A stretch of 35,911 bases of DNA from Actinomycetota bacterium (GCA_035286545.1 DATEDE010000072.1:1-35911); one strand, 5' to 3'; counted from the first letter of the stretch, positions 4,560 through 31,618 are shown. Program-made: numbers and translations. Notes: generated by a model from the letters alone, not told the origin.

Positions 4560-4573
4560 GGCCGCGGTCTCAG
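4556..4573. terminator. Short palindrome spanning both convergent stop codons (possible bidirectional terminator hairpin)
   Basis: CTGAGGCCGCGGTCTCAG can form a 7-bp stem (one G-U pair) with a CGCG loop. It contains TGA 4557-4559 (+ gene) and TCA 4570-4572 (- gene stop). No U-tract. Confidence 0.3.
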
Positions 4574-5672: not shown

Positions 5673-5692
5673 CGCGACCGCCTCTCCGCGGG

Positions 5693-6682: not shown

Positions 6683-6827
6683 CGCTCACCTATCGCGTCG
6701 GTCACGCTGCCTCGTCGTGGGTCGCGGATCGTCGTACCGTTCGAGGCGCCGATCGCCATCGGGCCAAGCCCGACTTGACTTCGCGACGTAGGACCGGGTA
6801 CAACCTGACCGACCTCGTTGGTCTAAA

Positions 6828-6835
6828 ATCGTACC
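6828..6835 (-). promoter_or_regulatory. GGTACGAT (minus strand), candidate extended -10 element for the AKR-tautomerase-DpaA-like operon
   Basis: The AT-rich core GGTCTAAAATCGTACCAAAGTAGGG sits in the divergent intergenic region 6683..6883. The reverse complement of ATCGTACC is GGTACGAT, the same octamer found upstream of aceE. The top strand also carries TAAAAT at 6824-6829 facing the ABC operon. Confidence 0.3.
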
Positions 6836-6883
6836 AAAGTAGGGCGAGCAGCGGTTCACCTGGCGCCGAGCGGAAGGCGAGCC

Positions 6884-11386: not shown

Positions 11387-11403
11387 AGGAGGACGAACGC
11401 ACC

Positions 11404-13007: not shown

Positions 13008-13017
13008 GGAGGTCGTG

Positions 13018-16319: not shown

Positions 16320-17477
16320 ATGAAGATCACCGAGGTCGAGACCTTCAACGTGGCGCTGCCGTGGCGCCGGCTGCACAAGATGGCGTTCCCGTCCGGCAAG
16401 CTCGGGAACTACTCGATCGTCCGCATCCGCACGGACGAGGGCTTCGAGGGGCTGGGCGAGGCCACCGTCATCAAGGAGTGGGGCGGCGACTACGGCCGGT
16501 ACTTCGGTGAGTCCCCCGAGCTCACGGTCGCCGTCATCAACTCGGTGCTCGGACCCGCGCTGATCGGCCACGACCCGTTCGCGATCGAGCGCGCGCATCG
16601 CGAGATGGATCTCGCGGTGAAGGGTTACCCCTACGCGAAGACCGCGATCGACGAGGCGCTCCACGACATCAAGGGGAAGGCGCTCGGCGTCCCCGTGTAC
16701 GAGCTCCTCGGCGGCCTGTGGCGCGAGGAGATCCCGATCGCGCACTCGCTCGGGTGGATGGAGTACGAGGAGGCGACGTCGGAAGCGGCCGCCGCCGTCG
16801 CCGAGGGCATCCGCACGATCAAGATCAAGGTCGGCCGCTCGGAGGAGTACGACGTCCGGATCGTGCGCGAGGTCCGCGAGACGGTCGGCGATGACGTCGA
16901 CATCGTCGTCGACGCGAACCAGGGATGGCCGACCCCCAAGCACGCGATCCGCGTGCTGCGCCAGATGCAGGAGTACCGGCTCCGCTACGCGGAGCAGCCG
17001 GTCGAGGGGATCGCACGGATGGCCCGGGTCGCGCGGGCGGTCGACGTGCCCATCATGGCCGACGAGAGCGCCTGGACCCCGCAGGACGTCCTCGAGATCG
17101 TCGAGCGCGGCGCCGCGGACATGATCTCGCTCTACACGACGAAGCCGGGCGGTCTGTTCAAGGCCAAGAAGGTGGCGGCGGTGGCCGAAGCGGCCGGCCT
17201 CCCGCTCAACGTGAACGGCTCGCACGAGACCGGGGTCGGGAACGCGGCGAACCTGCACCTCGTAGCCTCGACGGCGGCGGTCACCGAGGCGGGCGTGTTC
17301 CCCGTGACGACGATCGAGGGCAAGGAGCCGACCACGATGGCCGGCAAGATGTACCTCGACGACATCATCACGCAGCCGTTCGAGTACCGCGACGGCAACC
17401 TGATCGTCCCGTCGGGCCCGGGCCTCGGGATCGAGCTCGACGAGGAGAAGGTCGCGCGCTACCGGACCGGGGGGTAG
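16320..17477 (+). CDS. Enolase-superfamily enzyme, muconate-lactonizing (MLE) subgroup (racemase/epimerase/cycloisomerase/dehydratase)
   Basis: 385 aa. KxK motif IKIKVG, metal ligands in VVDANQGW, AEQPV, MADES, and a second catalytic Lys in LYTTKPGG. Confidence 0.85.
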   Translation: MKITEVETFNVALPWRRLHKMAFPSGKLGNYSIVRIRTDEGFEGLGEATVIKEWGGDYGRYFGESPELTVAVINSVLGPALIGHDPFAIERAHREMDLAVKGYPYAKTAIDEALHDIKGKALGVPVYELLGGLWREEIPIAHSLGWMEYEEATSEAAAAVAEGIRTIKIKVGRSEEYDVRIVREVRETVGDDVDIVVDANQGWPTPKHAIRVLRQMQEYRLRYAEQPVEGIARMARVARAVDVPIMADESAWTPQDVLEIVERGAADMISLYTTKPGGLFKAKKVAAVAEAAGLPLNVNGSHETGVGNAANLHLVASTAAVTEAGVFPVTTIEGKEPTTMAGKMYLDDIITQPFEYRDGNLIVPSGPGLGIELDEEKVARYRTGG

Positions 17478-17482: not shown

Positions 17483-18610
17483 ATGGCGATCCGAGACGTC
17501 GCGATCCTCGGAGCCGGCAACGGCGGCTGCGCCGCGGCCGCGGACCTCGGCAGCCGCGGGTACCGCGTCCGGCTCTACAACCGGTCGTCCGAGCGGTTGG
17601 TCGGCATCGTCGAGCGAGGCGGGCTCGAGAAGCTCGGTGCCGCCGGCGAGGGGTTCGTCGAGATCCCGGTGGTGACGACCGACCTGTCGGAGGCCGTCGG
17701 CGGCGCGGATCTCGTCATGCTCTCCGTCCCGATCTCGACGCACCCGTTCTTCGCGCAGGGTCTGGCCCCCCTGCTGCAGCCGGACCAGGTCCTGTTCCTG
17801 AACCCGGGGCACATGGGCGGGGGCCTCTTCATGGCGCACGAGCTGCATCGCCTGACCGGTCGCACGGACGTCCGGATCTGCGAGACGAGCACGCTCACCT
17901 ACGGCTGCCGGATGCGGGGCCCGGGGACGGTGAACATCATGGCGACGATGACGAACCTGCCGTTCGCGGCGTTCCCGGGCCGCAACCAGCAGGAGCTCTA
18001 CGACCTGATCGCGCCGCTCTACCCCGACATCGTGCAGGCGTCGCACGTGCTCGAGACGGGCTTCATGGACATCAACGCGGTCGAGCACCCGCCGCAGATC
18101 ATCTGCAACGCGGGGTGGCTCGAGCACACCAAGGGCGACTACCTCTTCTACTACGAGGGCACCACGCCGGGGGTCGCCCGCGTGATCGAGGCGCTCGATG
18201 CCGAGCGGATGGCGATCGCGGCCGCGGCGGGCATCCCGACCCGCCCGTTCGTCGAGGTGTTCCACGCGATGGGGTACACGAGCGCGCACGCGGCCGAGGT
18301 CGGCTCGGCGTACGTGGCCCTGCAGGAGAGCGAGCCGAACCGATGGGTGAAGGGCCCACCTACGCTCGACCATCGCTACATCAACGAGGACGTCGGCTGG
18401 GGCCTAGTGCCGTGGTCGGAGATGGGTCGCTCGTTCGGCGTCCAGACGCCCACGATGGATGCCCTCATCGTGCTCGGGGGCGTCCTGAACGGGCGCGACT
18501 ACCGCGCCGAGGGCCTGACGCTCGAGCGGCTCGGCCTCGCCGGCGTGCGCCCCGAAGACCTGGACGCGTACCTTCGGGAGGGCATCGCTACCGTGGAGGG
18601 TGGTGGATGA
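17483..18610 (+). CDS. Opine dehydrogenase family NAD(P) oxidoreductase, paralogue 2
   Basis: ATG 17483. 375 aa. Rossmann VAILGAGNGGCAAAADL. ...DINAVEHPPQIICNAGWLE... and ...RYINEDVGWGLVP... parallel the motifs in paralogue 1. Confidence 0.7.
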   Translation: MAIRDVAILGAGNGGCAAAADLGSRGYRVRLYNRSSERLVGIVERGGLEKLGAAGEGFVEIPVVTTDLSEAVGGADLVMLSVPISTHPFFAQGLAPLLQPDQVLFLNPGHMGGGLFMAHELHRLTGRTDVRICETSTLTYGCRMRGPGTVNIMATMTNLPFAAFPGRNQQELYDLIAPLYPDIVQASHVLETGFMDINAVEHPPQIICNAGWLEHTKGDYLFYYEGTTPGVARVIEALDAERMAIAAAAGIPTRPFVEVFHAMGYTSAHAAEVGSAYVALQESEPNRWVKGPPTLDHRYINEDVGWGLVPWSEMGRSFGVQTPTMDALIVLGGVLNGRDYRAEGLTLERLGLAGVRPEDLDAYLREGIATVEGGG

Positions 18611-20190
18611 CGAAGCAGCGGATCGCGGTCTTCTCCGGTCCGAACGCGACGATCGCGAACTCACCGACGCTCGTCACGAGCAACAAGGGCCGACGTCCCG
18701 GTGAGCGCCGGCTGGACGGCCGGTTCGATTCCCTCGTGGCGCAGGAGCTCTACGAGCCCGTGACCGTGCGCATCAAGCGGTTCAGCGCCCACCCGCTCGA
18801 GGCGGACGCCGCCGGCGTCTACCACGAGCCGGACCGGGCCTACGACGAGGTCGAGCTGCGTCCGGAAGATGGCCCGTACCCGTTGCCGTACGTCTCGAGG
18901 CGGGCCGACGGGTCGCCAGACGGCGTCCCGTTCGAGGACGAGGACCTCGAGGATCGGTCGATCGGCTACGGCGGACGGCAGTTCTACTACCCGGACGCCG
19001 CGCGGCTGTTCGCGGAGATCGATCGGACGATCACCGGTCGTGACGAGGACGGCAGCGGCAGTACGCTCGATCGCCGCGCCGACTTCGACTTCATCCGTGT
19101 GCTTCCGTCGGGCGGCTACGCGTCTCGTGGGGAGGTTAGCGGCCGCGACTACTTCCCCTACAAGCCACGTGCGATCGCGCACCGTCCCCGGTATCGCGAC
19201 CTCGCGACCGCTACGAACGTCGTCCGCGAGGCGATGCGCTCTGGCCGGTACGCGGGCGGCATCTGGCTCGAGGCTAGTCCCACCCTCGAGGAGACGCTCT
19301 ATTGGTGCAACCTCGTGCTCGACATCGATATCTCGCTCGTGGGCTGCGCGTCGCAACGCCCGCACGGGCAGTTGGCCAACGACGGCGACCGCAACATCGT
19401 GGACGCCATCGACTTCATCCTCTCGGGGGAGAGGCTCGGCGTCGTCGCGCTCCAGGACGAGAGGATCTTCGCAGCGCGCGAGTTCAAGAAGGCGGATGAC
19501 CGTCCGGGGAACTACAAGGTCACGGGAGGCCACGGCGGGATCCTCGGTAGCGTCGGGCCGCCGGTCACGGTCTGGTACCGACCGGCGTACAAGCACACTC
19601 ACACGTCGGAAGTGAACCTTCGACGGTTACCCGAGCAGGTCGCCTTCCTCGACCGCGCCGACGATCGGTCTCCAACGACCATCCGGATCAAGGACGGTGA
19701 GCGGCTGCGGCCCGAGGTGATCCCGCGGGTCCACATGGTCAAGTACGGCGCATACATGGACGAGGACGTCCTCGATGATCCCGATGGGGAGGTCGACATC
19801 ATGGCGAGGATCGCCAGGGGTCTCGAGCAGCAGTCGCGGGCCATCGAAGGCGCCCCGCCGTTCCACGGTTTCGTGTTCGAGGGGCTGTCTCCGTACGCGT
19901 ACGGGAGCGGGTCGCAACGCGAGGCGCTGAAGATCGCCGCCTTCAGCGGGATGCCCGTGGTTCGCGTGGGGCGCGCGGATCCCGGCGGCATGGTCCCGAA
20001 GCGGGGCTGGCCGCATGCAGTCACCGGCAGCAACCTCGATGCGAACAAGGCCCGGATGCTGCTCATGGCGAGCATGCTGAAGCTCGGCCGTTGGCCGAAG
20101 GCGAAGGACCCTAGGCATCCGACGCCGGAAGAGTGCGACGCGCTGTACGCTGCGGTCGCCGCGTATCAGGCCCTCTTCGATACGCACTGA
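18607..20190 (+). CDS. Divergent asparaginase/glutaminase-fold protein (527 aa) with non-canonical active-site motifs
   Basis: ATG 18607 overlaps the upstream stop (ATGA). [14 protein letters not shown] resembles the I..ATGGTIAG motif. [19 protein letters not shown] resembles [44 protein letters not shown] resembles [37 protein letters not shown] resembles the C-terminal KARILLMLAL. Confidence 0.55.
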   Translation: [527 protein letters not shown]

Positions 20191-20254
20191 GAGCCCGGAG
20201 AGGTCACCTGCGGTGCTCGCAACCCGTTGCGACGCGGAGGGTTCTCACTTTGAC

Positions 20255-20266
20255 TAAAGGTAGGAT
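20255..20266 (+). promoter_or_regulatory. TAAAGGTAGGAT element (candidate extended -10 / operator) upstream of the tautomerase operon
   Basis: This 12-mer is repeated exactly at 24289..24300. It contains TAGGAT (a TANNNT-type -10) preceded by GG. It sits in the 184-nt gap 20191..20374. Confidence 0.4.
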
Positions 20267-20306
20267 ATTATGCCGAAGTTGCGTGCGTGGGGGGCGCGGT
20301 CGTCGA

Positions 20307-20332
20307 GGGGCACCGGGGCGCACCCGTGCCCC
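20307..20332 (+). other. GC-rich hairpin in the 5' leader of the tautomerase operon
   Basis: GGGGCAC-CGGGGCGCACCCG-GTGCCCC forms a 7-bp perfect outer stem plus inner pairs. It lies between the -10-like element and the SD/GTG at 20375. Confidence 0.35.
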
Positions 20333-20374
20333 GCTCGCGGGTGCCGACCACCGGACGTGGAGAGGGGAGGAGAG

Positions 20375-20575
20375 GTGCCGAACGTCACGATCGAATGGCT
20401 CCAGGGCCGCTCGCTCGACCAGAAGCGGAAGGTGATCGCCGGGATAACCGATCTGCTGGTCGACATCGCCGACGCCCGCCGCGAGGCCGTCCAGGTCACG
20501 TTCATCGACATGAGCAAGGAGGACTGGGGTCGCGGCGGGCTCCTCGGCATCGACCGCACGGACGTCCATCCGTGA
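20375..20575 (+). CDS. 4-oxalocrotonate tautomerase family protein (66 aa), paralogue 2
   Basis: GTG 20375 follows GGAGAGGGGAGGAGAG. The product MPNVTIEWLQGRSLDQKRKVIAGITDLLVDIADARREAVQVTFIDMSKEDWGRGG... is identical to paralogue 1 at 42 of 66 positions in an ungapped alignment. Confidence 0.85.
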   Translation: MPNVTIEWLQGRSLDQKRKVIAGITDLLVDIADARREAVQVTFIDMSKEDWGRGGLLGIDRTDVHP

Positions 20576-20934
20576 GCATCCCCAAGCGCGTCCACCACCT
20601 GCTCCTGCAGACCCGCGACCTCGAGGCGGCCGAGGCGTTCTACGTCGGGTTCCTCGGCTTCTCGGTTAGGAAGCGCGAGCAGTTCCATGACGGCCGCCCC
20701 CTCACGACGACGGAGGAGGGGCTGGGCCTGACGAACGGCGTCCGGGGCGAGGCCGGCAGCGTCGTCGAGCACATCGCGTTCCGGACGAGCGACATCCGCG
20801 GGCTCGCCCAGCGCGCCGAGGCCCAAGGCATCGAGGTGCTCAAGCCGCCCGGCCCCGGCCCGTACGGCCTCACGGTCTACCTCGCCGACCCCGACGGGAA
20901 CAGGATCGAGCTGTTCTCCGAGGAGGAGGCTTGA
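20572..20934 (+). CDS. VOC-family protein (glyoxalase / bleomycin resistance / dioxygenase fold), single module
   Basis: GTG 20572 overlaps the upstream stop (GTGA). 120 aa. VHHLLLQTRDLEAAEAFYVGFLGF ... EHIAFRTSD ... VYLADPDGNRIELF is the classic VOC pattern. Confidence 0.8.
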   Translation: MSIPKRVHHLLLQTRDLEAAEAFYVGFLGFSVRKREQFHDGRPLTTTEEGLGLTNGVRGEAGSVVEHIAFRTSDIRGLAQRAEAQGIEVLKPPGPGPYGLTVYLADPDGNRIELFSEEEA

Positions 20935-21860
20935 GCCGGGAGGATTCCCCGGTCGAGTGGGCGAAGCTCCGGATCGCCGTGGTCGCGGGCGATGAGCGCG
21001 ATCCGGAGATCGCGCGTCTGGCGGCGGAGACCGGCGCGACCGTGACGGCGTTCGGCATCCCCTGGCCGCCGCAGGGCGTCGCGGGCGTCCAGCTCGCGGA
21101 GTCCGCCGCCGCCGCGGTCGACGGCGCGAACTACATCCTCTTCCCGATCCCGCTCGGGGTCGGCGCGGTCCTGTATGCCCCGCACGCGACCGAGCCGATC
21201 GTCGCCGACGAGGCGTTGTTCTCGAAGGCCGCGCCGGACGCGTGGATGTTCTGTGGCCGGCTCCGCGACGAGATCCGGGCGTCGGCCGACGCGGCGGGCG
21301 TGTACGTCCACGAGTACGACCCCGACAGGGAGCTGATGCTCCTGCGCGCCCCGGCGATCGTCGAGGGGGCGCTCCAGCAAGCGATCGAGGCGACGGACGT
21401 GACGATCAACGACGCCGAGGTCGTCGTGATCGGGTTCGGCAACATCGGCCAGCTCCTCGCGCGAACGCTCCGTGGGCTCGGTGCCCGCGTCCACGTCGCC
21501 GCGAGGAACCCGATCCAGCGGGCGGGGGCCTATGCCGACGGCCTACTGCCGCTCTCGCTCGATGAGCTCCACGACCTCGCCCCCTCCCTCGACATGGTCT
21601 TCTCGACGGTGCCGGCGCCTGTCGTCGACCGCCCGTTCCTCGAGCGGCTGCCCACCGGCACGTTGGTCCTCGACATCGCACCTCCGCCCGACCACGCGGA
21701 CCTCGACGCGGCGGCGGAGCTCGGGCACCGGGCGGTGTGGGCGCGCGGCCTCGGGAAGCGCGCGCCGATCACGGTCGGCAGGAGCCAGTGGGCGGGGCTC
21801 CGCCGCTTCATCACCGAGATCGAGCTGGCGAGGCGGGAGGGGCGGACGTGGCAGGGATGA
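20931..21860 (+). CDS. DpaA (dipicolinate synthase subunit A)-like NAD-binding dehydrogenase, paralogue 2
   Basis: TTG 20931 overlaps the upstream stop (TTGA), the same arrangement as paralogue 1. 309 aa. IAVVAGDERDPEI, APAIVEGALQQAIEATDVTINDAEVVVIGFGNIG, ARGLGKRAPITVGRSQW. Roughly 60% identical to paralogue 1 by eye. Confidence 0.75.
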   Translation: MSREDSPVEWAKLRIAVVAGDERDPEIARLAAETGATVTAFGIPWPPQGVAGVQLAESAAAAVDGANYILFPIPLGVGAVLYAPHATEPIVADEALFSKAAPDAWMFCGRLRDEIRASADAAGVYVHEYDPDRELMLLRAPAIVEGALQQAIEATDVTINDAEVVVIGFGNIGQLLARTLRGLGARVHVAARNPIQRAGAYADGLLPLSLDELHDLAPSLDMVFSTVPAPVVDRPFLERLPTGTLVLDIAPPPDHADLDAAAELGHRAVWARGLGKRAPITVGRSQWAGLRRFITEIELARREGRTWQG

Positions 21861-23155
21861 CCCGCGGATCGCGGTCGCCCGACGTCGCGATCGTGGGGGC
21901 CGGGTCGCTCGGGCTGATGACGGCGCTCGAGCTCGCCCGGCGAGGTGTCCGCCCCGTGATCCTCGAGCGCGGACCCGACGTCCTCTCCGGGTGCTCGTCG
22001 GGGAGCGCCGGCCTGCTGTCGCCGGCGCACTCGACCCCGCTGGCGACGCCCGGCGCCGTCCGCGAGGGGCTTCTCCACATGCTCCGACGCGACAGCCCGT
22101 TCAGCATGCGGCCCCGGCCGAGCCTGATCCCGTGGCTGCTCCGGTTCATGCTCGCCGCGCGCGGCGATCGCGTCCGCCGCGGGACCGAGCTGATCCGGGA
22201 CTTCAGCTTCGCGAGCCTGGAGCTTCACAAGGAGCTCGTCCGGCAGGGGCTCGACACGGGGCTCGAGGTCCTCGGCGCGATCAACGTCTACGAGACCGAG
22301 AAGGCCTACGTCGGTGGCCTCGCCGAGGCCGAGGACCTTTCGTCGCATGGGATCAAGGCCCATGTGATGACGGCCGACGAGGCGCGCACGTTCGAGCCCG
22401 CGCTCTCGGACGCGATCGTCGGGGGGGTCTTCTACCCAGAGGAAGCGCAGTGCGACCCCGAGCGCTTCATGCTCGCGGTCGCCGATGCGGCCGTCGAGGC
22501 GGGAGCGGAGCTCTGCACGCGGGCCGAGGTCCTTGACGCGACGGTCTCGGGCGGACGGGTCGTGCGCCTGGTCACGACGATCGGCGAGATCCGTCCCGGA
22601 CAGGTCGTCGTCGCGAACGGCGCGTGGACGGCCGAGCTCAGCCGTCGGCTCGGCCTGCCGATCCCCGTCCAGGGCGGCAAGGGGTACCACGTCGACCTTA
22701 CTCCCTCCGAGGGCGATCCCGCCGTGCCGGTCTACCTCCAGGAGGCACGCGTGATCGCGACGCCGTACGCGAACCGGCTCCGACTCGCCGGCACGCTGCA
22801 GCTCACCGGGCTGTCCATGCGGATGGACCAGGTCCGCGTCCGGGCGACGGTCCGGTCGGGGATGCGGACCCTGCGCGGCATCGAGGCGAGCCGTGTGACC
22901 GAGGTGTGGCGGGGGATCCGCCCGTGCACGCCCGACGGCCTGCCTATCCTCGGACGGTCCGAGCGGCTGGCAAACGTCGTCTTCGCGACCGGTCATGCGA
23001 TGAAGGGGCTCCACCTCGCTCCGGAGACCGGGCGCCTGATCGCGCAGGTGGTGCTGGACGAGCCGCCGACCCGAGACCTCACCCCCTTCAGCCCGGACCG
23101 GTTCCGGTGGGGGGCGCGGGGCAAGCAGCCGACCGAGGACCGGAGGGACGGATGA
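21857..23155 (+). CDS. FAD-dependent oxidoreductase, DAO family (D-amino-acid dehydrogenase DadA-like)
   Basis: ATG 21857 overlaps the upstream stop (ATGA). 432 aa. Dinucleotide fold VAIVGAGSLGLMTALELARRG. ...VVANGAWT... and ...GIRPCTPDGLPILG...VVFATGHAMKGL... are typical DAO-family blocks. Confidence 0.8.
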   Translation: MTRGSRSPDVAIVGAGSLGLMTALELARRGVRPVILERGPDVLSGCSSGSAGLLSPAHSTPLATPGAVREGLLHMLRRDSPFSMRPRPSLIPWLLRFMLAARGDRVRRGTELIRDFSFASLELHKELVRQGLDTGLEVLGAINVYETEKAYVGGLAEAEDLSSHGIKAHVMTADEARTFEPALSDAIVGGVFYPEEAQCDPERFMLAVADAAVEAGAELCTRAEVLDATVSGGRVVRLVTTIGEIRPGQVVVANGAWTAELSRRLGLPIPVQGGKGYHVDLTPSEGDPAVPVYLQEARVIATPYANRLRLAGTLQLTGLSMRMDQVRVRATVRSGMRTLRGIEASRVTEVWRGIRPCTPDGLPILGRSERLANVVFATGHAMKGLHLAPETGRLIAQVVLDEPPTRDLTPFSPDRFRWGARGKQPTEDRRDG

Positions 23156-24264
23156 AGCAGGACATCATCGACAAGTGCATCGCCGCGTGCGACGAGCACG
23201 ACCTCGACGCGATCGTCGCCATGTCCCCGGAGAACTTCGCCTACGTGGTGGGGTTCATCGTGCCGTCGCAGCCCGTCCTGCGGTGGCGGCACGCCGCCGC
23301 CGTCATCACCCGCGACGGGAAGCGGGCGCTGCTCACGGTGGACATGGAGGCGACGACCGTGAAGGACCTCCAACCCGACGAGGACGTCCGCGTGTGGGCC
23401 GAGTTCGACGAGAACGCGATGCCGGTCTTCGCCGACCTCCTGAAGGACCTCGGGCTCGGTTCGGCGCGCGTCGGCATCGAGACCGATTACCTGCCGGTGC
23501 GCGACATGGAGCGGCTCACGTCGCTGCTCCCCGACGTGCGCTGGGAACCATCGTCCCCGATCTTCGATCGCCTGCGGATGGTGAAGACCCCCCGTGAGCT
23601 CGAGCTGATGCGCAAGCTCGCGCGGATCACCGACCGGTCGATCAAGGAGGCACTAGAGGGCATCCACCCCGGGGACACCGAGATGGACCTCGCGGGCTCG
23701 GTGACGACGAACCTGTTCCGCTATGGCGCGCAGAACTTCAAGTGGTTGATCCTCGCGACGGGGGAGCGGAGCCAGTACCCGAACGTCGGACCGACGCTCC
23801 GCAAGCTCGAACGCGGGGACATCGTCCGGCTCGAGGTCTTCGGCGCCCTCGACGGCTACCACACCGGGATCTGCCGGACCGCGGTGGTCCAGGAGGCGTC
23901 GCCGGAGATCGAGGAGATCTGGTCGAACATCGTCGCGTGCCGCGACCTGATCTTCGGAACCGTCCGCGCCGGAGCGGTCGGCACCGAGATCCACCGCAGG
24001 GTGATGGTGAAGTTCGACGAGCTCGGGTGGCCGCGGATGGGGTTCGTGGGTCACGGCATCGGTCTGTTCGTGCACGAGGACCCCTACCTCGGACCGGATG
24101 CCGACGCGATCCTCGAGACGGACATGGTCCTCGGCGTCGAGCCCGTGCTGCTCGTGCCCGGGAAGTACGGGTTCCAGGTCAAGGATATCCTCGCCGTTGG
24201 CCCCGACGGGTGCGACGTCCTGTCGGACGTGACCAACACCGATCGCCTGCTCGTGATCGAGTGA
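23152..24264 (+). CDS. M24-fold (creatinase/prolidase/ectoine-hydrolase-like) hydrolase with incomplete metal-ligand set
   Basis: ATG 23152 overlaps the upstream stop (ATGA). 370 aa. Creatinase_N-like N-terminus (DAIVAMSPENFAYVVGF) and pita-bread C-domain (MVKTPRELELMRKLARI, GDIVRLEVFGALDGYHTGICRT, GHGIGLFVHEDP, LGVEPVL, FQVKDILAV). Confidence 0.75.
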   Translation: MKQDIIDKCIAACDEHDLDAIVAMSPENFAYVVGFIVPSQPVLRWRHAAAVITRDGKRALLTVDMEATTVKDLQPDEDVRVWAEFDENAMPVFADLLKDLGLGSARVGIETDYLPVRDMERLTSLLPDVRWEPSSPIFDRLRMVKTPRELELMRKLARITDRSIKEALEGIHPGDTEMDLAGSVTTNLFRYGAQNFKWLILATGERSQYPNVGPTLRKLERGDIVRLEVFGALDGYHTGICRTAVVQEASPEIEEIWSNIVACRDLIFGTVRAGAVGTEIHRRVMVKFDELGWPRMGFVGHGIGLFVHEDPYLGPDADAILETDMVLGVEPVLLVPGKYGFQVKDILAVGPDGCDVLSDVTNTDRLLVIE

Positions 24265-24288
24265 GGTCGCTTGCGGGGTTCAAGGGTA

Positions 24289-24300
24289 TAAAGGTAGGAT
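24289..24300 (+). promoter_or_regulatory. TAAAGGTAGGAT element (second exact copy) upstream of the SDR gene
   Basis: Identical 12-mer to 20255..20266. It lies 40 nt upstream of GTG 24340, with SD GGGAGGAGTGAGGAGG in between. Confidence 0.4.
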
Positions 24301-24339
24301 TCCCGTCCATATCGGGCCGGGAGGAGTGAGGAGGCGCAC

Positions 24340-25149
24340 GTGGATCTGAAGCTCGCGGGCAAGAAGGCGATCGTGACCGGTGGGAGCAAGGGCATCGGGC
24401 GCGAGACCGCGCGCATCCTCGCCGAGGAGGGGTGCGACGTCGCGATGACGGCGCGCGAGGAGGGGCGCCTGAAGGACGTCGCCGACGCCATCGCCTCGGC
24501 CACCGGCCGGACGATCCTCCCGCTCGCCGGCGACATGAGCGTGCAATCGGACGTCGAGCGGTGCATGAACGCCGCGATCGAGGCGTTCCAGGGCATCGAC
24601 GTCCTCGTGACGTGCGCGGGCAGCTCGCCGGGCGGTCTGCTCGAGGAGCTCACCGAGGACATGTGGATGAGCAGTCTCGGCCTGAAGTTCATGGGATACG
24701 TGCATTCGTGCAGCGTGATCCTGCCGCACATGCGGGAGCGCGGCACGGGCAGCGTGGTGCTCGTCGTCGGCAACGACGGGCTGAAGTCCTCGTACTGGGA
24801 GCTCACGGCCGGCGTCGCGAACGCCGCGGACATCAACTTCGCGGCCGCGATGGCAGAGCAGTACGGTCGCCACGGCATCCGCGTGAACACGGTGAACCCC
24901 GGCCCCGTGAACACCGACCGCTGGGACGGGCTCGAGAAGCGGTTCGCGCTCGATCGCGGCATCGACCAGTCCGATGCGCGAAGGATCGTGCTCGGGACGC
25001 TGCCGCTCGGTCGGATCTGCGAGCCCGAGGAGGTCGCGAGCGTCGTCGTGTTCCTCGCCTCGCCGCAGGCGAGCTACGTGAACGGCACGCACGTGCTGAT
25101 CGACGGTGCCCAGCTGAAGGGGCTGCTCGATGCCGGCCTGCACTCGTGA
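24340..25149 (+). CDS. Short-chain dehydrogenase/reductase (SDR) superfamily protein, atypical active site
   Basis: GTG start. 269 aa. Cofactor motif TGGSKGIG and the ...IRVNTVNPGPVNTD... block are present. No clear YxxxK: the region reads SSYWELTAGVANAAD. Confidence 0.75.
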   Translation: MDLKLAGKKAIVTGGSKGIGRETARILAEEGCDVAMTAREEGRLKDVADAIASATGRTILPLAGDMSVQSDVERCMNAAIEAFQGIDVLVTCAGSSPGGLLEELTEDMWMSSLGLKFMGYVHSCSVILPHMRERGTGSVVLVVGNDGLKSSYWELTAGVANAADINFAAAMAEQYGRHGIRVNTVNPGPVNTDRWDGLEKRFALDRGIDQSDARRIVLGTLPLGRICEPEEVASVVVFLASPQASYVNGTHVLIDGAQLKGLLDAGLHS

Positions 25150-25182
25150 CCCGCTGACGCCCGCCGGGTCGGAGGCGGCACG

Positions 25183-26181
25183 ATGACCGACCTGATCGAC
25201 GTCCACTCGCACGACTACCCGGACTCGTACCTGGACGCGTGTAAGCGCGAGGACAGCGGGTTCACGCACTACTACCGTGACGACGGGCGCCTGATCGTGC
25301 TCCAGGACGGCGGCGTCGCGCTCGCCGCGCCGCAGCCGCTGCCGCCGCCCGAGCACCGCATCGGCATGATGGATGAGGCCGGTGTCGCGGTGCAGGTGCT
25401 GTCGATCTCGGCGCCGAACGTCTACCGGTTCCCGGCGTCGATCCGGATCCCGCTCACGCGGGAGGTGAACGACGAGTTCGCCGATCGCGTGGAGGGTTCG
25501 GGCGGGCGGCTCCGGATGCTAGCGAGCCTGCCGCTGCCCGACGTCGACGAGGCCCTCGCGGAGCTCGACCGCGCGCTCGGCCTGCCGGGCGTCGTCGGTA
25601 TCGTCCTGTGCTCGAACCTCGACGGCATGACGCTCGACGACGAGCGACTCGGGCCCCTGTACGAGGAACTGTCACGTCGGGAGACGACCGTGTTCGTCCA
25701 CGGCAACGTTCCATGCAGCACGGAGGGGCTCCGCGAGTACGCGATGGCGCTCGCGATGGGGTTCATGGCCGACCCGCTCTTCGCGATCGGCCGCCTCGTC
25801 TACTCCGGCACGATCGACCGGTACCCCGGGATCGACTGGATCTTCACGCACCTGGGGGGGACGGTACCGTTCGTGCTGCCCCGGTACGACAACTACTACA
25901 AGCAGTTCCCGGAGTGCCGGGAGAAGATCACGCGGCCGCCGTCGGAGATCATCCGGGAGCTCTACTTCGACACGTGCACGATGCACCCGCCAGCGCTCCG
26001 GTGCGCGGTCGACACGCTCGGCGCGGACCGCCTCGTCTTCGGGTCCGACTACCCGCACGTGCCGGGCGGGATCGACCGGTTCGTCACGATCTTGAACTCG
26101 ATCGGGCTCTCCGAGGACGAGGTCTCGATGATCGGGCGGGCGACGGCCGCCCGCCTGCTCGGGATCCTGGAGGCGGCGTGA
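25183..26181 (+). CDS. Amidohydrolase_2 (ACMSD-like metal-dependent decarboxylase/hydrolase) family protein
   Basis: ATG 25183 lies 7 nt after GGAGG. 332 aa. N-terminal IDVHSHDYP (HxH) and C-terminal LVFGSDYPH (Asp) are family hallmarks. Confidence 0.8.
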   Translation: MTDLIDVHSHDYPDSYLDACKREDSGFTHYYRDDGRLIVLQDGGVALAAPQPLPPPEHRIGMMDEAGVAVQVLSISAPNVYRFPASIRIPLTREVNDEFADRVEGSGGRLRMLASLPLPDVDEALAELDRALGLPGVVGIVLCSNLDGMTLDDERLGPLYEELSRRETTVFVHGNVPCSTEGLREYAMALAMGFMADPLFAIGRLVYSGTIDRYPGIDWIFTHLGGTVPFVLPRYDNYYKQFPECREKITRPPSEIIRELYFDTCTMHPPALRCAVDTLGADRLVFGSDYPHVPGGIDRFVTILNSIGLSEDEVSMIGRATAARLLGILEAA

Positions 26182-27560
26182 GCGTCGTCGTCCGCGGCGG
26201 GCGCATCGTCACCGCGTCCGCGGACTTCGTGGGCGACGTCCTCATCGACGGGGAGACGATCGCCGCGATCGGGTCGTTCCCCGACATCGACGCACAGGTC
26301 ATCAACGCGAGCGGCAAGCTCGTGCTGCCCGGCGGCGTCGACCCGCACACGCACCTCGACGCGCCGCTGAAGGGGACGATGACGGCGGACGACTTCGAGT
26401 CGGGGACGATCGCCGCTGCGATCGGCGGGACGACCAGCATCATCGACTTCCCGGTGCAGGACAAGGGGCAGGACCCCCGCGTCTCCCACGAGGAGTGGGC
26501 CGGCCGCGCCGAGGGCAAGGCCGTCGTGGACTGGGGCCTCCACCAGGTGATCGTCGATCTGCCCGATGAGTACTTCCCGGCCCTGGACGACCTGATCGCG
26601 AACGGCTCGCCGAGCTTCAAGATGTTCATGGCCTATCCGGGCGCCCGGATGGTCGACGACGCGACGATCTTCAAGGCGATGCGGCGAACGGCCGACAACG
26701 GCGGCTTCGTCCTGATGCACTGCGAGAACGGCCCCGTGATCGACCTCCTCGAGAAGGAGGCGCTCGCCGCGGGGCACACCGGTCCCGAGTACAACGGCGT
26801 GACGCGCCCCCCGATCACCGAATCGGAGGCGACCGCCCGTGCCATCGCGCTCGCCGAGCTCGCCGGCGTCCCCGTCTACGTCGTTCACCTCGCCGCGGCG
26901 CAGGCGCTCGCCGCCGTCGCGGACGCTCGCGAACGCGGGCTGCCCGTCTACGCGGAGACGTGCCCGCACTACCTCCTGCTCACCGAGGAGGTGCTGAAAG
27001 AGCCCGACTTCGGGGGCGCGAAGTACGTGATGTGCCCGCCGCTGCGGACCCCGTGGCACCAGGAGCGCCTGTGGCAGGGGCTGCGGACGAACGACCTCCA
27101 GGTCGTCTCGACCGATCACACGCCGTTCCGGTTCGCGGACCAGAAACAGCTCGGGCGCGACAACTTCCCGAAGATCCCGAACGGCGTCCCCGGCATCGAG
27201 TGGCGGACGACGCTCCTGTACCACTTCGGCGTGCGCGAGGGGAGGATCGGGCTCAACCGGTTCGTCGAGCTGATCTCGACGACGCCGGCGAAGCTGTTCG
27301 GCTGCTACCCGCGCAAGGGCGAGATCGCGCCGGGCTCCGACGCCGACCTCGTGATCTTCGATCCCGAGCGCGAGACGACGTTGACCGCGGCATCCCAAGC
27401 CACGAAGAGCGACTACAACCCGTACGAGGGGTGGACCGTCCGCGGTGTCGTCGATACCGTGCTCCTGCGCGGGCAGGTCATCGTGGACGGCGGCCGGTTC
27501 GTCGGCAGGAAGGGGCAGGGGCGGTTCTTGCGCCGAGGGGCGTCCAGCGCGCTGGCCTGA
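26178..27560 (+). CDS. D-hydantoinase / dihydropyrimidinase
   Basis: GTG 26178 overlaps the upstream stop (GTGA). 460 aa. GGVDPHTHLD, SFKMFMAY (carbamylated-Lys context), VLMHCEN, VYVVHL and VSTDHTPF match the cyclic amidohydrolase metal-site pattern. Confidence 0.85.
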   Translation: MSVVVRGGRIVTASADFVGDVLIDGETIAAIGSFPDIDAQVINASGKLVLPGGVDPHTHLDAPLKGTMTADDFESGTIAAAIGGTTSIIDFPVQDKGQDPRVSHEEWAGRAEGKAVVDWGLHQVIVDLPDEYFPALDDLIANGSPSFKMFMAYPGARMVDDATIFKAMRRTADNGGFVLMHCENGPVIDLLEKEALAAGHTGPEYNGVTRPPITESEATARAIALAELAGVPVYVVHLAAAQALAAVADARERGLPVYAETCPHYLLLTEEVLKEPDFGGAKYVMCPPLRTPWHQERLWQGLRTNDLQVVSTDHTPFRFADQKQLGRDNFPKIPNGVPGIEWRTTLLYHFGVREGRIGLNRFVELISTTPAKLFGCYPRKGEIAPGSDADLVIFDPERETTLTAASQATKSDYNPYEGWTVRGVVDTVLLRGQVIVDGGRFVGRKGQGRFLRRGASSALA

Positions 27561-27593
27561 CGGCTCGCGACGCGTCGGGACGAGGAGGACGAG

Positions 27594-28274
27594 ATGGCAG
27601 ACGCCGGCAGCGGGCTCTCGCTCCCGCCGGAGCGTGTGGACCCGGAGAAGACCAGGTTCCTCGTGATCGACGTGCAGAACGACTTCTGTGCGCAAGGCGG
27701 GTGGTTCGACGAGTACGCGAACGACCTCACGCTGATCCACGAGGCTGTGGACCGGCTCGTGGCGTTCATCGACGTCGCGCGGCGGGCCGGGGTCCCGCCG
27801 ATCTTCGTCCGGGCGATCTACGATCGGATCTACCTGTCGCCGCCGATGCTCGAGCGGCACGCGCGGACCGGGCTCGGGATCGACCACTGCCGCGAGGGAA
27901 CGTGGGGCGCCGAGTTCTTCCGCGTGCAGCCGCTCGAGGGTGAGCTCGTCTTCACGAAGCACCGCTACAGCGCGTTCAAGGACACGGAGCTGAACGCCTA
28001 CCTGCGGGCGCAGCGGGTCGAGAACCTGATCCTCGCGGGCATCACGTCGAACGTCTGCGTGGAGTCGACGGCCCGCGACGCGTACATGTTCGACTACCAC
28101 GTCGTGTTCCTGAGCGACGCCTCCGCGACCTACCAGGCTGAGGCCCACGAGGCGACGCTCGCGAACATCCGTCGCGCGTTCGGCATCGTCGCGAGCACCG
28201 GCGAGGTCGCCGACGCGTGGCGATCCACGGGCGCACTGCCGGCGGCGCCCGGTCCCGCCCGAGCGGTCGGATGA
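27594..28274 (+). CDS. Isochorismatase-family cysteine hydrolase (RutB / N-carbamoyl-amide amidohydrolase-like), copy 3
   Basis: ATG 27594 follows GAGGAGGA. LVIDVQNDFC, EGTWGAEFF, TKHRYSAF, TSNVCVESTARDA. It is closest in pattern to copy 1. Confidence 0.85.
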   Translation: MADAGSGLSLPPERVDPEKTRFLVIDVQNDFCAQGGWFDEYANDLTLIHEAVDRLVAFIDVARRAGVPPIFVRAIYDRIYLSPPMLERHARTGLGIDHCREGTWGAEFFRVQPLEGELVFTKHRYSAFKDTELNAYLRAQRVENLILAGITSNVCVESTARDAYMFDYHVVFLSDASATYQAEAHEATLANIRRAFGIVASTGEVADAWRSTGALPAAPGPARAVG

Positions 28275-28308: not shown

Positions 28309-30060
28309 TCAGGCGAGCGGCGGGAGCCACACGTCGACGACCGCCGGGCATCCCTCGCGCTCGACGGCTGTCCGCGCCTCGCGCAGGGTGGGGACGAGGT
28401 CGGCGCGCTCGTCCACGCGCGCGCCGAAGCCGCCCGCGGCCCGCGCCTGCGCGGCGAAGTCCGGCGGCGGGTCGAACGTCCCGCCCGAGTAGTCGTTCGC
28501 GCGGACGGCCGAGCCGTTCGGGTAGTCCTCCCGAAGACGGGTCGTGCCCGTGCGGTAGCCGCGGTTGTTCGCGACGACGGTCAGGATGGGGACGTCGTAC
28601 CGTCCCTGCGCCCACAGCAGGATGCTCGGCGATCCGAACTGGTATGCCCCGTCGCCGACGAGGGAGGCAACGAACCGGCCGCGGTCGGCGAACCGCACTC
28701 CCATCCCGGCGGCGACCGACCATCCAAGGCTCGAGCCGCCGGACTCGAAAAGCGTGTCGGGCAGGGTCCGGGGGATGCGCCAGGTGTCGGTCATCTCCCA
28801 CGTGAGGACGTCGTCGGGCTCGAGCGCCTGCGCCATCGCGCTGCCGAGCGCGTCCTCGTCGATCGGCCCGGTGCTGGGCGCGGCCGTGTCCCGCTCGGCG
28901 ATCCGTCGTCCGGCGAGCGCCTCGAACGACGCCCAGCGCTCCCGGATCCGCTCAGCGTGCGACCCCGTCCGCAGCGAGCGCATCCGCTCGACCAGCACCG
29001 TGAGGAAGTCCGTGGGGTCCGCCGTGATCCGGACGTCGCTCGGGAACTCGTAGAGCGGGACCGTGATCGCCGCCGGGTCGTTCCCCACGGTGGCGATCCA
29101 CGCGTCGGGCGAGGGACGTTCGCGCGCGGGGATCCATGGCACGAGGTGCTCGAGGACGACGATCGCATCGACGCGCGAGAGCGGCACGATCCCGTCGTCG
29201 CGCGGCGTCTGCGCCGACGTGAACGTGCCGCCGGCCCACGAGCTCGGATGGTCGTCGGAAAGGTTCATCCGATGCCGCGTCGCGCGGACCGCGATCGCGA
29301 AGTCTCGCGCGAGCTCGTCGAGCGCGTCGATCGCTCGGGGATCGCGACCGACGCGGTCGGTGATGACGAGCGGGTGGTCGGCGTCGAGCAAGCGGCGCGC
29401 GATCTCGTCCACCGCGTCGTCGGGCCCGGCCCCGACCCGCGGGACGCCGAGTCGGTCGACCGTGGTCATGCCAGCGTCGCCGCCGAGGGGGACGTGACCG
29501 ACCTCCTTCGGCAGGATCAGGTACGCCGGGCCCTGCGGCGGCGTCGTCGCCACCTGGAGGGCCCTCGCGGTCACCAGTGCGGGATCGTCGTACGTCGACA
29601 GCTTGTAGTCCCACTTCATGAACTGCCGCGCGATCTCGCCCTGGTCCCACCGCTGCTGCTTCCAGAACACGGGGATCGTCCGGCGCTCGACGGTCGTACC
29701 CGGGTAGCCGGTGATCACGAGGACGGGGTACTGCCCGACCATCGCGTTGTGCAGGGCGCCCCCCATGTGGAGGAGCCCGACGTCCACGTGCGCCGCGACC
29801 GCGGCCGGAGCGCGCCGGATCATCGCCTCGCCCATCGCGATCGAGATCGCGACGTGCTCGTGGACCATCTGCATGATCCGCGGCGAGGGTAGTCCATGCT
29901 CCTTTGCCCGGGCGGCCGCCTCCTGGAACGACACGAGGTCGTTGCCGCTCACGAACCAGAGGTGCTCGATCCCGGCGAGCTTCGCGACCGCGAGGATGGC
30001 CTGGGCCGGCTCGGCGCCGGCGAGGTCGACGCTCCCTGTCGAGCCCTCCGACGCGCTCAC
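28309..30060 (-). CDS. Thiamine-diphosphate-dependent enzyme (acetolactate synthase / benzoylformate decarboxylase superfamily)
   Basis: GTG start (CAC 30058-30060). 583 aa. The N-terminal PYR domain (...HVDVGLLHMGGALHNAMVGQYPVLVITG...) and the ThDP motif LVGDGAYQF...VVANNRGY are present. Confidence 0.8.
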   Translation of the reverse strand: MSASEGSTGSVDLAGAEPAQAILAVAKLAGIEHLWFVSGNDLVSFQEAAARAKEHGLPSPRIMQMVHEHVAISIAMGEAMIRRAPAAVAAHVDVGLLHMGGALHNAMVGQYPVLVITGYPGTTVERRTIPVFWKQQRWDQGEIARQFMKWDYKLSTYDDPALVTARALQVATTPPQGPAYLILPKEVGHVPLGGDAGMTTVDRLGVPRVGAGPDDAVDEIARRLLDADHPLVITDRVGRDPRAIDALDELARDFAIAVRATRHRMNLSDDHPSSWAGGTFTSAQTPRDDGIVPLSRVDAIVVLEHLVPWIPARERPSPDAWIATVGNDPAAITVPLYEFPSDVRITADPTDFLTVLVERMRSLRTGSHAERIRERWASFEALAGRRIAERDTAAPSTGPIDEDALGSAMAQALEPDDVLTWEMTDTWRIPRTLPDTLFESGGSSLGWSVAAGMGVRFADRGRFVASLVGDGAYQFGSPSILLWAQGRYDVPILTVVANNRGYRTGTTRLREDYPNGSAVRANDYSGGTFDPPPDFAAQARAAGGFGARVDERADLVPTLREARTAVEREGCPAVVDVWLPPLA

Positions 30061-30102
30061 CTTGGTCTCGACGTCCGTCGGGGCCTCTCGCGCTCGGTCA
30101 TA

Positions 30103-30110
30103 GGTACGAC
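30103..30110 (+). promoter_or_regulatory. GGTACGAC, a -10-like relative of GGTA(G/C)GAT in the divergent intergenic region
   Basis: It lies within GGTCATAGGTACGACCATATATGC, the only AT-richer patch between the TPP-enzyme start (30060) and the amidohydrolase coding frame. Confidence 0.25.
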
Positions 30111-30164
30111 CATATATGCTCGGCTCGGCGCCCGCGCGGTGCGGGACGGGACGAGAGGCACGCC

Positions 30165-31598: not shown

Positions 31599-31618
31599 GC
31601 GGGCGGCCCTCAGCCCGC
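31599..31618. terminator. Hairpin between convergent genes (possible bidirectional terminator)
   Basis: GCGGGC-ggccctca-GCCCGC forms a 6-bp stem. It starts 1 nt after TGA 31596-31598 and covers the regulator's stop codon (TCA 31610-31612). Confidence 0.3.

Follow-up and report, generated by a model that had tools for sequence, protein, structure and literature searches.

Organisation of the five-gene cassette

Genes in a 35,911-nucleotide stretch of an Actinomycetota bacterium genome (GCA_035286545.1; DATEDE010000072.1:1-35911), hereafter referred to as the window, were called by their third-position GC content (GC3), the window having a G+C content of ~71%. Five plus-strand reading frames, each with a GC3 of 0.92-0.97, fill positions 20375-24264 and form a cassette in which every gene overlaps the next by four nucleotides. 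Families were assigned by Pfam analysis of 35 window genes and subfamilies by comparison against the NCBIfam equivalog cut-offs. The cassette comprises the following genes:

20375-20575, plus strand: tautomerase (Taut2), 66 amino acids, GTG start; PF01361
20572-20934, plus strand: single-domain VOC/glyoxalase-fold protein, 120 amino acids, GTG start within GTGA; PF00903
20931-21860, plus strand: DpaA-like NAD(P)-dependent dehydrogenase (Dpa2), 309 amino acids, TTG start within TTGA; DpaA_N and Rossmann domains
21857-23155, plus strand: DAO-family FAD oxidoreductase (DadA/ThiO-like), 432 amino acids; PF01266
23152-24264, plus strand: Creatinase_N and M24-fold hydrolase with a degenerate metal site, 370 amino acids; PF01321 and PF00557

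The four stop/start junctions, GTGA (20572-20575), TTGA (20931-20934), ATGA (21857-21860) and ATGA (23152-23155), read in the sequence exactly as described in an earlier note on this DNA, and the five family assignments made there are borne out by Pfam. All five proteins score below the NCBIfam equivalog cut-offs and, in keeping with that note, the enzymes do not map to separate well-known pathways. The chosen starts are backed by the GC3 analysis, and each has a purine-rich Shine-Dalgarno-like stretch within the 3′ end of the preceding gene. The TTG start of the DpaA-like gene is supported by the length of its homologues, which are overwhelmingly 309 amino acids long, and the TTGA junction, though unusual, is kept in most of the fourteen distinct orthologous cassettes described below.

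Across these fourteen cassettes, NTGA overlaps are found at 45 of the 56 junctions. This evolutionary conservation argues that the translational coupling of the cassette is real and under selection, and it bears out the proposal that the five genes belong together as a conserved and tightly coupled unit. Four-nucleotide overlaps are, furthermore, the most frequent junction type in the window (11/29 same-strand junctions), and another run of three is found at 599-3489 in a Mo-hydroxylase operon. The run of four in the cassette is notable, not extraordinary. As such overlaps are the local norm, they provide evidence for translational coupling, not for fixed stoichiometry, and the obligate co-translation in fixed amounts that the earlier note derived from them was an over-reading.

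Conservation of the cassette and the wider cluster

Related loci compared with the window are numbered L001, L002 and so forth. The fourteen orthologous cassettes occur in uncultured Actinomycetota, with DpaA-like amino acid identities of 62-82% in thirteen and 43% in one. The exact order tautomerase-VOC-DpaA-DAO-M24, with genes for an MLE-type enolase (MLE) and an opine-dehydrogenase-like protein (ODH) upstream and SDR, decarboxylase, dihydropyrimidinase and isochorismatase genes downstream, recurs in many uncultured Actinomycetota contigs, and the gene order that the earlier note had singled out is as such conserved. A close relative (L002/L003) has the arrangement tautomerase-VOC-DpaA-(54-amino acid open reading frame)-M24, without the DAO gene.

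Other lineages show another order: tautomerase, isochorismatase, VOC, (M24), MLE, ODH, DpaA-like, cyclic amidohydrolase, (cog0402 aminohydrolase). This wider cluster is carried by Pseudarthrobacter, Arthrobacter, Actinomadura, Amycolatopsis, Mycobacterium, Leucobacter and Nocardioides, is also found in Gaiellales, Solirubrobacterales, Opitutales, Pandoraea, Variovorax and Burkholderia, and is located on plasmids of Aminobacter, Shinella and Phyllobacterium. Among its cultured carriers are Pseudarthrobacter sp. P1, Arthrobacter sp. 35W, Leucobacter zeae, L. ruminantium, Actinomadura spp., Mycolicibacterium sp. SCSIO 43805, Pandoraea terrae, Variovorax davisae, Aminobacter sp. MSH1 and Shinella sp. 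HZN7. Judging by these comparisons, the cassette is a lineage-specific, rearranged sub-operon of a wider cluster of about 10-15 genes, and not the self-contained pathway for which it had been taken. Co-occurrence was counted in 48 loci with a DpaA-like gene and at least 7 kb on both sides, as follows:

tautomerase, 98% of loci
VOC, 94% of loci
ODH, 92% of loci
MLE, 88% of loci
isochorismatase, 75% of loci
M24, 73% of loci
cyclic amidohydrolase, 71% of loci
cog0402 aminohydrolase, 60% of loci
DAO, 25% of loci (12/48)

The core of the wider cluster is made up of the 4-OT tautomerase and a RutB-like isochorismatase, which is usually fused to VOC, together with the MLE, ODH and DpaA-like proteins. 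In 31 of the 48 loci, the DpaA-like gene directly follows the ODH gene. In most other lineages (about 38 loci), the isochorismatase and VOC proteins form one fused polypeptide of ~330 amino acids, with VOC C-terminal (e.g. L026 6640-7632; L081 15122-16111), and in this polypeptide the isochorismatase part most resembles the ureidoacrylate amidohydrolase RutB. The two are split in the window and lie 7 kb apart (VOC, 20572-20934; isochorismatase 3, Iso3, 27594-28274).

Recurrent neighbours of the cluster include genes for NMT1-type binding proteins, aldehyde dehydrogenase, a Hyi-like (hydroxypyruvate-isomerase-like) TIM barrel, malate synthase, 2-oxoacid dehydrogenase E1 alpha/beta, a CodA-like deaminase and an NCS1 'cytosine/purine/uracil/thiamine/allantoin' permease. 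The Hyi-like gene is present in seventeen loci, while malate synthase is located beside the cluster in nine (e.g. L001 17409-18998 and L082 8101-10743), the Aminobacter locus also carrying genes for a GlcG-like 'heme-binding' protein and a DAO-family protein. The malate synthase and Hyi-like genes hint at glyoxylate as a product.

Characteristics of the cassette proteins

Taut2 matches PF01361 with 52.5 bits (cut-off: 22 bits) and begins (M)PNVTIE, which gives a mature N-terminus with Pro-1, the catalytic residue of the family. Pro-1, Arg-11 and Trp-50 are invariant in 69 homologues. Arg-11 and Arg-39 form the carboxylate-binding pair of canonical 4-OT, while position 39 of Taut2 is a Gln, by a positional count against 4-OT. 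Taut2 falls below all NCBIfam 4-OT equivalog cut-offs; a paralogue in the window, Taut1, just passes NF002571 (58.4 vs 55). The VOC protein (PF00903; Bitscore: 66.1) reaches no specific subfamily cut-off but has the beta-alpha-beta-beta-beta module and His/Glu metal ligands of the superfamily, and the His near its N-terminus, the His in EHIAF and the Glu in IEL are conserved across 61 homologues.

The DpaA-like protein combines a match to PF16924 (DpaA_N; Bitscore: 55.7) with Rossmann-domain matches, and its nearest PDB relatives are the dipicolinate synthase A chains 2RIR and 3D4O. It is nevertheless below both DpaA equivalog cut-offs (NF006162: 182.5 < 261; TIGR02853: 156.4 < 319.65), while the paralogue Dpa1 scores 176.8 and 156.6 bits, respectively, on these models. 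The GxGxxG motif is kept as GFGNIG, and an AARN motif that follows Rossmann beta-2 is also conserved. The latter lacks the acidic residue typical of NAD enzymes, suggesting an NADP-type dehydrogenase. The DAO protein (PF01266; Bitscore: 220) scores 200.4 bits on the DadA model NF001933, below the cut-off of 383, and its gene appears from the co-occurrence counts to be an accessory, lineage-specific member of the cluster.

The last protein matches PF01321 (Creatinase_N; Bitscore: 78.3) and PF00557 (Bitscore: 120.4). Alignment to the Deinococcus prolidase 5GIU places E228, G239, H301, E330 and K344 at the canonical D, D, H, E and E metal-ligand positions. Two of the five ligands of M24 metallopeptidases are thus missing, and the description of this protein as metal-poor in the earlier note is accurate. 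The E-G-H-E-K signature is invariant in thirty homologues, down to 36% identity and across phyla, the Aminobacter plasmid homologue being 49% identical, and defines a separate M24 orthologous group. Comparison of the window gene (23152-24264) with those of related clusters (e.g. L018 6646-7746; L002 3072-4190) reveals that two M24 subfamilies are in use, namely E-G-H-E-K (thirty sequences, including Proteobacteria) and canonical D-D-H-E-E (eighteen sequences), the latter taking its place in the clusters of Gaiellales and Solirubrobacterales. Both subfamilies are found in L002/L003, and the canonical gene in L002 adjoins a formamidase/acetamidase (FmdA_AmdA) gene.

Genomic context of the cassette

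Nearly the whole of the 36 kb window reads as one catabolic island, in which the following genes flank the cassette:

3-3489: three-subunit Mo-hydroxylase, N-heterocycle/xanthine-dehydrogenase family
3486-4559, plus strand: ODH1, four-nucleotide overlap with the Mo-hydroxylase large subunit gene (Pfam)
4570-5475, minus strand: DpaA-like 1 (Dpa1), 60% identity to Dpa2
5472-5672, minus strand: tautomerase 1 (Taut1), ATGA-type four-nucleotide overlap with Dpa1, 66% identity to Taut2
5693-6682, minus strand: aldo-keto reductase (AKR), preceding the Taut1/Dpa1 pair
beyond 6683-6907, divergent from AKR: ABC importer
10652-12075: alpha/beta-hydrolase and isochorismatase 1
13015-13734: isochorismatase 2, four-nucleotide overlap with an OCD/mu-crystallin-family gene
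upstream part of the window, before MLE: class I/II aminotransferase and GlcG/HbpS-like gene (Pfam)
16320-17477, plus strand: MLE-type enolase-superfamily protein (Pfam)
17483-18610, plus strand: opine-dehydrogenase-like ODH2 (Pfam)
18607-20190: 527-amino acid protein that matches the asparaginase domain only weakly and in part, located between ODH2 and the cassette
24340-25149, plus strand: SDR (Pfam)
25183-26181, plus strand: ACMSD/IDCase-like Amidohydro_2 decarboxylase (Pfam, PDB matches)
26178-27560, plus strand: dihydropyrimidinase/D-hydantoinase (TIGR02033; 567.9 bits, above the cut-off of 393.25)
27594-28274, plus strand: RutB-like isochorismatase Iso3 (Pfam)
28309-30060, divergent from the cog0402 gene: TPP enzyme
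30243-31598, plus strand: cog0402 (TRZ/ATZ-type) aminohydrolase (Pfam, NCBIfam)
31610-32311, minus strand: GntR/FCD regulator (Pfam, NCBIfam)

The nearest PDB relatives of the MLE protein are N-succinyl-amino-acid racemases, muconate cycloisomerases and dipeptide epimerases. ODH2 matches the N-(1-D-carboxyethyl)-L-norvaline dehydrogenase (CENDH) of Arthrobacter (1BG6; E = 8e-57). A PDB sequence search with the binding protein of the window returned no informative match. The unit at 24340..28274 travels with the cassette, as is evident from synteny in L001, L004-L016, L024, L027 and L076, and the cog0402 aminohydrolase shares 60-68% identity with its counterparts in clusters of distant phyla. 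ODH1 is convergent with AKR-Taut1-Dpa1, and this paralogous block (3486-6682) is conserved as such in L015, L017, L019 and L020. Its recurrence suggests that the tautomerase/DpaA/ODH trio may be a reusable unit, serving two related substrates or two successive steps.

Three isochorismatase-family paralogues are encoded in the window (within 10652-12075, 13015-13734 and 27594-28274). The first lies after the alpha/beta-hydrolase gene and overlaps an EamA transporter call by 40 nucleotides (12036-12075); the start of the EamA gene is probably located further downstream. The protein encoded at 18607-20190 is kept in L002 (71% identity) and absent from most related clusters.

Promoter and regulatory motifs

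The cassette is preceded by a 184-nucleotide gap, which holds the sole sigma-70-like match in 19900-24500. Two sequence features can be observed here and upstream of the following gene:

20242..20277, plus strand: promoter-like site TTCTCA-18-TATTAT, upstream of the cassette, overlapping the conserved motif AAAGGTAGGATATTATGCCGAA
24290..24300, plus strand: second copy of AAAGGTAGGAT, 40 nucleotides upstream of the SDR gene at 24340

The conserved motif AAAGGTAGGAT(ATTATGCCGAA), located at 20256-20277, overlaps the predicted -10 region, and its 11-mer AAAGGTAGGAT is found exactly at 20256 and at 24290. It is kept without change ahead of the tautomerase gene in L001, L005, L007 and L002, where the flanking sequence has diverged, and can also be found upstream of the SDR gene in L001. 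The motif may represent a shared promoter or operator of the cassette and the downstream SDR unit, its second copy implying that the two are co-regulated. The cassette as such appears to be transcribed as a separate unit whose regulation is shared with the SDR/decarboxylase/dihydropyrimidinase/isochorismatase unit that follows.

The leader upstream of the tautomerase gene (20268-20380) is not more structured than shuffled sequence (z = 0.57), and no Rfam match or riboswitch was found in the window. The only riboswitches in the fourteen related loci screened are a c-di-AMP riboswitch in L030 (18828-18969, plus strand), which is at the edge of the Actinomadura locus and appears unrelated to the cluster, and a TPP riboswitch in L042 of Leucobacter zeae (2398-2508, minus strand), which lies before an SBP_bac_1/6-type solute-binding protein, ~4 kb from the cluster. 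The latter was rejected as a clue to the substrate, its solute-binding protein target being unrelated and separated from the cluster by a DUF6350 gene. Imperfect palindromes, observed by eye, are located in two divergent intergenic regions, GGTCATAGGTACGACC at 30061-30242 (TPP enzyme/cog0402 aminohydrolase) and TGGTCTAAAATCGTACCA at 6683-6907 (AKR/ABC importer), and could be candidate GntR/FadR-type operators.

Predicted role of the cluster

We tentatively interpret the cassette as a translationally coupled sub-operon, with a promoter of its own, of a conserved catabolic cluster for an N-rich heterocyclic carboxylate resembling a nucleobase, hydantoin or cyclic amidine, a reading that we prefer to the others below but to which we attach somewhat less than even confidence. 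The analysis establishes the anatomy, families, conservation and co-occurrence of the genes, the isochorismatase-VOC fusion and the degenerate metal site, whereas the substrate class, the reaction direction and the order of steps are inferred. The cluster reads as catabolic because it is accompanied by importers, GntR/FCD regulators, several C-N hydrolases, aldehyde dehydrogenase and malate synthase; a biosynthetic cluster was rejected on the same grounds, its neighbours including deaminases and amidases and the regulators being repressors. An N-rich heterocycle is suggested by the hydrolase set, which includes dihydropyrimidinase/allantoinase-type, RutB-like, cog0402, CodA-like and creatinase-fold enzymes, the last without a dinuclear metal site, by the NCS1 and NMT1/THI5-like transporter types, and by the Mo-hydroxylase that adjoins the paralogous tautomerase-DpaA-ODH set, beside an ABC importer. 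Furthermore, the equivalog-level dihydropyrimidinase of the window adjoins the IDCase/ACMSD-like decarboxylase and the RutB-like protein. The core redox and isomerase families of the cluster all act next to an -N-CH(COO-)- centre.

The substrate would be taken up by the NMT1-type ABC system or an NCS1 permease. The NADP-type DpaA-like enzyme and the opine-dehydrogenase-like enzyme would then add or remove hydride at a ring -N-C(COO-)-C- position, with the same local chemistry as the dihydrodipicolinate/dipicolinate interconversion, and the Pro-1 tautomerase would move the double bond of the enamine/imine (or enol/keto) so formed. Next, C-N bonds of the ring and its side chains would be hydrolysed by the cyclic amidohydrolase, here of the dihydropyrimidinase type, the RutB-like cysteine amidohydrolase working with VOC, the cog0402 aminohydrolase and the metal-site-degenerate M24 hydrolase, which would open and deaminate the ring. 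The MLE-type enzyme may racemise or isomerise an alpha-carboxylate intermediate, MLE and VOC together tidying stereochemistry or isomers. DAO would be a lineage-specific extra that oxidises an amino or imino acid set free on the way, perhaps converting glycine or an N-substituted glycine to glyoxylate, and carbon would exit as a semialdehyde and/or glyoxylate. Purely hydrolytic dismantling of a ring has a precedent in the catabolism of lumichrome, where the uracil ring is removed by ring opening, urea hydrolysis and imidamide hydrolysis, after which a TPP decarboxylase and then a Mo hydroxylase act (PMC12746152).

Several observations weigh against this catabolic scheme. No member of the cluster except the dihydropyrimidinase is at equivalog level, and distant clusters replace that enzyme with a ~33%-identical relative scoring below every cut-off. 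Mycobacterium-type clusters lack both the isochorismatase and the cyclic amidohydrolase, which means that not every cluster can rely on those enzymes for ring hydrolysis. A ureide/purine route or an N-carboxymethyl (opine-like) substrate would explain the glyoxylate-linked genes as well as a pyrimidine route does, and no RNA element that would reveal the ligand was found in the window or the fourteen related loci screened. Furthermore, we know of no close characterised precedent in the family for a nicotinamide-only reduction of an aromatic N-heterocycle, bar the reverse DpaA reaction, and the genuine DpaA reaction requires the flavoprotein DpaB. Pyrimidine-, ureide/purine-, pteridine- and creatinine/ectoine-like compounds are all candidate substrates; chemical reasoning suggested a glycation product, thiamine-pyrimidine, orotate, a pterin/lumazine and allantoin. 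The clostridial purine pathway literature provided no useful lead.

Ring reduction is normally performed by flavin/iron-sulfur enzymes, such as dihydropyrimidine dehydrogenase and 6-hydroxynicotinate reductase. A bolder version of the scheme, which we regard as quite unlikely, is that the DpaA-like protein, the ODH-like protein and the Pro-1 tautomerase constitute a nicotinamide-only system that dearomatises an N-heteroaromatic or uracil-type ring by reverse DpaA chemistry, feeding a hydrolytic route made up of the RutB-like-VOC fusion, the cog0402 enzyme and M24 as a metal-free amidine/amide hydrolase. Such a system may stand in for the flavin/iron-sulfur enzymes.

Comparison with characterised systems

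The likeness to dipicolinate synthase (DpaA/DpaB; SpoVFA/SpoVFB) resides in the DpaA_N and Rossmann domains, with GxGxxG, of a 309-amino acid protein related to 2RIR and 3D4O, by analogy with which the DpaA-like protein probably acts on a ring -N-C(COO-)- centre. In contrast to the sporulation enzyme, which oxidises dihydrodipicolinate to dipicolinate, the DpaA-like gene is found in a catabolic context of importers and hydrolases, in high-GC Actinomycetota-labelled contigs and Proteobacteria, which are non-sporulating lineages, and its constant partners are the 4-OT tautomerase and the opine-dehydrogenase-like protein. Neither the 35 scanned genes of the window nor the genes annotated by Pfam in L001-L003 include a dpaB gene (PF02441).

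The cluster resembles the Rut pathway in that the isochorismatase partner of VOC is closest to RutB, that the alpha/beta-hydrolase and isochorismatase at 10652-12075 recall RutD/RutB and that RutC/RutD chemistry would find a parallel in a tautomerase that takes over the enamine set free by the amidohydrolase. RutA/RutF-like genes are, however, absent from the window, the RutB-like proteins of the window score 51-114 bits on TIGR03614 against a cut-off of 378, and the DpaA-like, ODH, MLE and M24 proteins have no Rut counterpart. With the reductive pyrimidine and hyu systems the window shares a dihydropyrimidinase at the TIGR02033 level, while related loci encode NCS1 permeases and dihydropyrimidinase/allantoinase-like enzymes and the MLE relatives include N-acyl/N-succinyl amino acid racemases. 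No PydA-type dihydropyrimidine dehydrogenase (PydA/PreTA), beta-ureidopropionase, nitrilase- or M20-type carbamoylase or Asp/Glu-type hydantoin racemase was, however, observed among the Pfam-scanned window genes, and the missing hyu-type functions would have to fall to the non-homologous DpaA-like/ODH, isochorismatase and MLE proteins.

The resemblance to lumichrome catabolism (LumH, LumI, LumM, LumK/L and LumJ; PMC12746152) is one of reaction logic, namely the use of ring-opening, urea-removing and imidamide/amine hydrolases, and the window likewise encodes enzymes of the TPP (28309-30060) and Mo hydroxylase (3-3489) types. It differs in that no P450, Rieske or catechol dioxygenase genes are present in the window, and the lumichrome paper names no tautomerase, isochorismatase, enolase-superfamily or opine-dehydrogenase enzyme and never uses the word 'dipicolinate' (PMC12746152).

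The M24 protein shares its Creatinase_N and M24 architecture, and the loss of the canonical dinuclear metal site, with creatinase and the ectoine hydrolase DoeA, and weakly matches the DoeA models and creatinase 1CHM. It scores, however, only 77.5 against 575 bits on NF038259 and 49.1 against 613 on TIGR02993, and in contrast to creatinase it is nearer the prolidases in sequence and carries its own E-G-H-E-K signature. Ectoine as the sole substrate was rejected on the DoeA/EutC model scores. A creatinine/creatine route was considered since cog0402 deaminase, hydantoinase, N-carbamoylsarcosine-amidase family, creatinase family and DAO are all represented; it ranks low, as the isochorismatase domain is nearer RutB (1e-22) than N-carbamoylsarcosine amidase 1NBA (5e-10) and the core DpaA-like, ODH, MLE, tautomerase and VOC proteins would be left without a role.

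Each of the protein superfamilies is known, as are N-heterocycle catabolic operons as a kind of system. No publication describing the cluster was found in the searchable literature for DpaA/DpsA with tautomerase, opine dehydrogenase, isochorismatase, mandelate racemase, creatinase or dihydropyrimidinase, and the earlier note's statement that the five-gene combination matches no described pathway holds for that literature. The combination of a non-sporulation DpaA-like clade, tautomerase and ODH partners, the isochorismatase-VOC fusion and the E-G-H-E-K M24 clade appears undescribed, and the present annotation of the DpaA-like proteins as 'dipicolinate synthase subunit A/DpsA' is almost certainly wrong. 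Should the catabolic interpretation be right, this label outside of spore formers would mark an undescribed pathway that is common in uncultured soil Actinomycetota and is also carried by cultivable Arthrobacter, Actinomadura, Mycobacterium, Leucobacter, Variovorax, Pandoraea, Aminobacter and Shinella, which makes it open to direct testing. Its elucidation would assign functions to at least five orphan orthologous groups (DpaA-like, ODH-like, tautomerase, isochorismatase-VOC and M24-EGHEK), correct a systematic mis-annotation, possibly reveal a new way to reduce and open N-heterocyclic rings, and add a route to soil nitrogen and nucleobase turnover.

Alternative interpretations

The main rival, which we consider improbable, is that the cluster serves the catabolism of cyclic or N-substituted amino acids, such as pipecolate, proline/hydroxyproline analogues, opine-type N-carboxyalkyl amino acids, D-amino acids and peptidoglycan-derived peptides. 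DAO, DpaA-like, ODH-like and OCD-like enzymes would interconvert amine and cyclic imine, the tautomerase imine and enamine, MLE would function as a racemase or epimerase and M24 would be prolidase-like. Every core enzyme family is known to act on an -NH-CH(COO-)- motif, the closest relative of the ODH protein is the Arthrobacter N-(1-D-carboxyethyl)-L-norvaline dehydrogenase, the solved MLE relatives include N-succinyl-amino-acid racemases and L-Ala-D/L-Glu epimerases, and the nearest solved relatives of M24 are prolidases. The OCD/mu-crystallin and class I/II aminotransferase genes of the window are consistent with such a route, and the release of glyoxylate from N-carboxymethyl compounds would account for the malate synthase and Hyi-like genes. 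The rival would, however, leave unexplained the highly conserved cog0402 aminohydrolase, the RutB-like isochorismatase, the CodA-like deaminase, the dihydropyrimidinase/allantoinase-type cyclic amidohydrolase and the NCS1 nucleobase-type permease. Furthermore, the M24 protein lacks the dinuclear metal site that prolidases need, and a Mo-hydroxylase accompanies the paralogous set.

The earlier note had suggested that the DadA-like flavoenzyme could supply the function of DpaB. Under this proposal, the DpaA-like and DAO proteins would form a two-component, dipicolinate-synthase-like oxidoreductase acting on dipicolinate, dihydrodipicolinate, picolinate or pipecolate, with the five products in fixed stoichiometry. 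The two genes do overlap by ATGA in the window and by ATGA or GTGA in 12/14 distinct orthologous cassettes, the solved structures nearest to the DpaA-like protein are those of true DpaA chains, and the nearby ACMSD-like decarboxylase, 4-OT tautomerase and muconate-cycloisomerase-like enzyme recall aminomuconate/pyridine carboxylate chemistry. The proposal fails because DAO is accessory and lineage-specific while tautomerase, VOC, ODH and MLE are constant: DAO is missing from 75% of the DpaA-like clusters, from L002/L003 and from the Taut1-Dpa1 module of the window itself, and the constant partner of the DpaA-like gene, immediately upstream in most loci, is the ODH-like gene. The Aminobacter DAO-family gene product is only 27% identical to the window DAO and is encoded beside malate synthase instead of the DpaA-like gene. 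With no PF02441 flavoprotein in the gene sets searched, a DpaA-like protein below both DpaA cut-offs and four-nucleotide overlaps as the default junction, a dipicolinate-synthase-like pair is very unlikely. The known dip cluster for dipicolinate, moreover, starts with the monooxygenase DipD, and its description, in which the functions of the other dip genes are not listed, names no tautomerase, isochorismatase or amidohydrolase (PMC11472048).

Incidental linkage, in which five genes without a common pathway were packed together by genome streamlining, could draw on the origin of each protein in a large, promiscuous superfamily and on the lack of equivalog-level matches, but this scarcely credible explanation is effectively refuted by the comparative data, given that the gene order and the overlaps persist where the proteins are only 62-82% identical, that these families also occur together in a different order across four phyla and on plasmids, that VOC is fused to a cluster member in most lineages, and that the paralogous tautomerase-DpaA pair overlaps again in the window.

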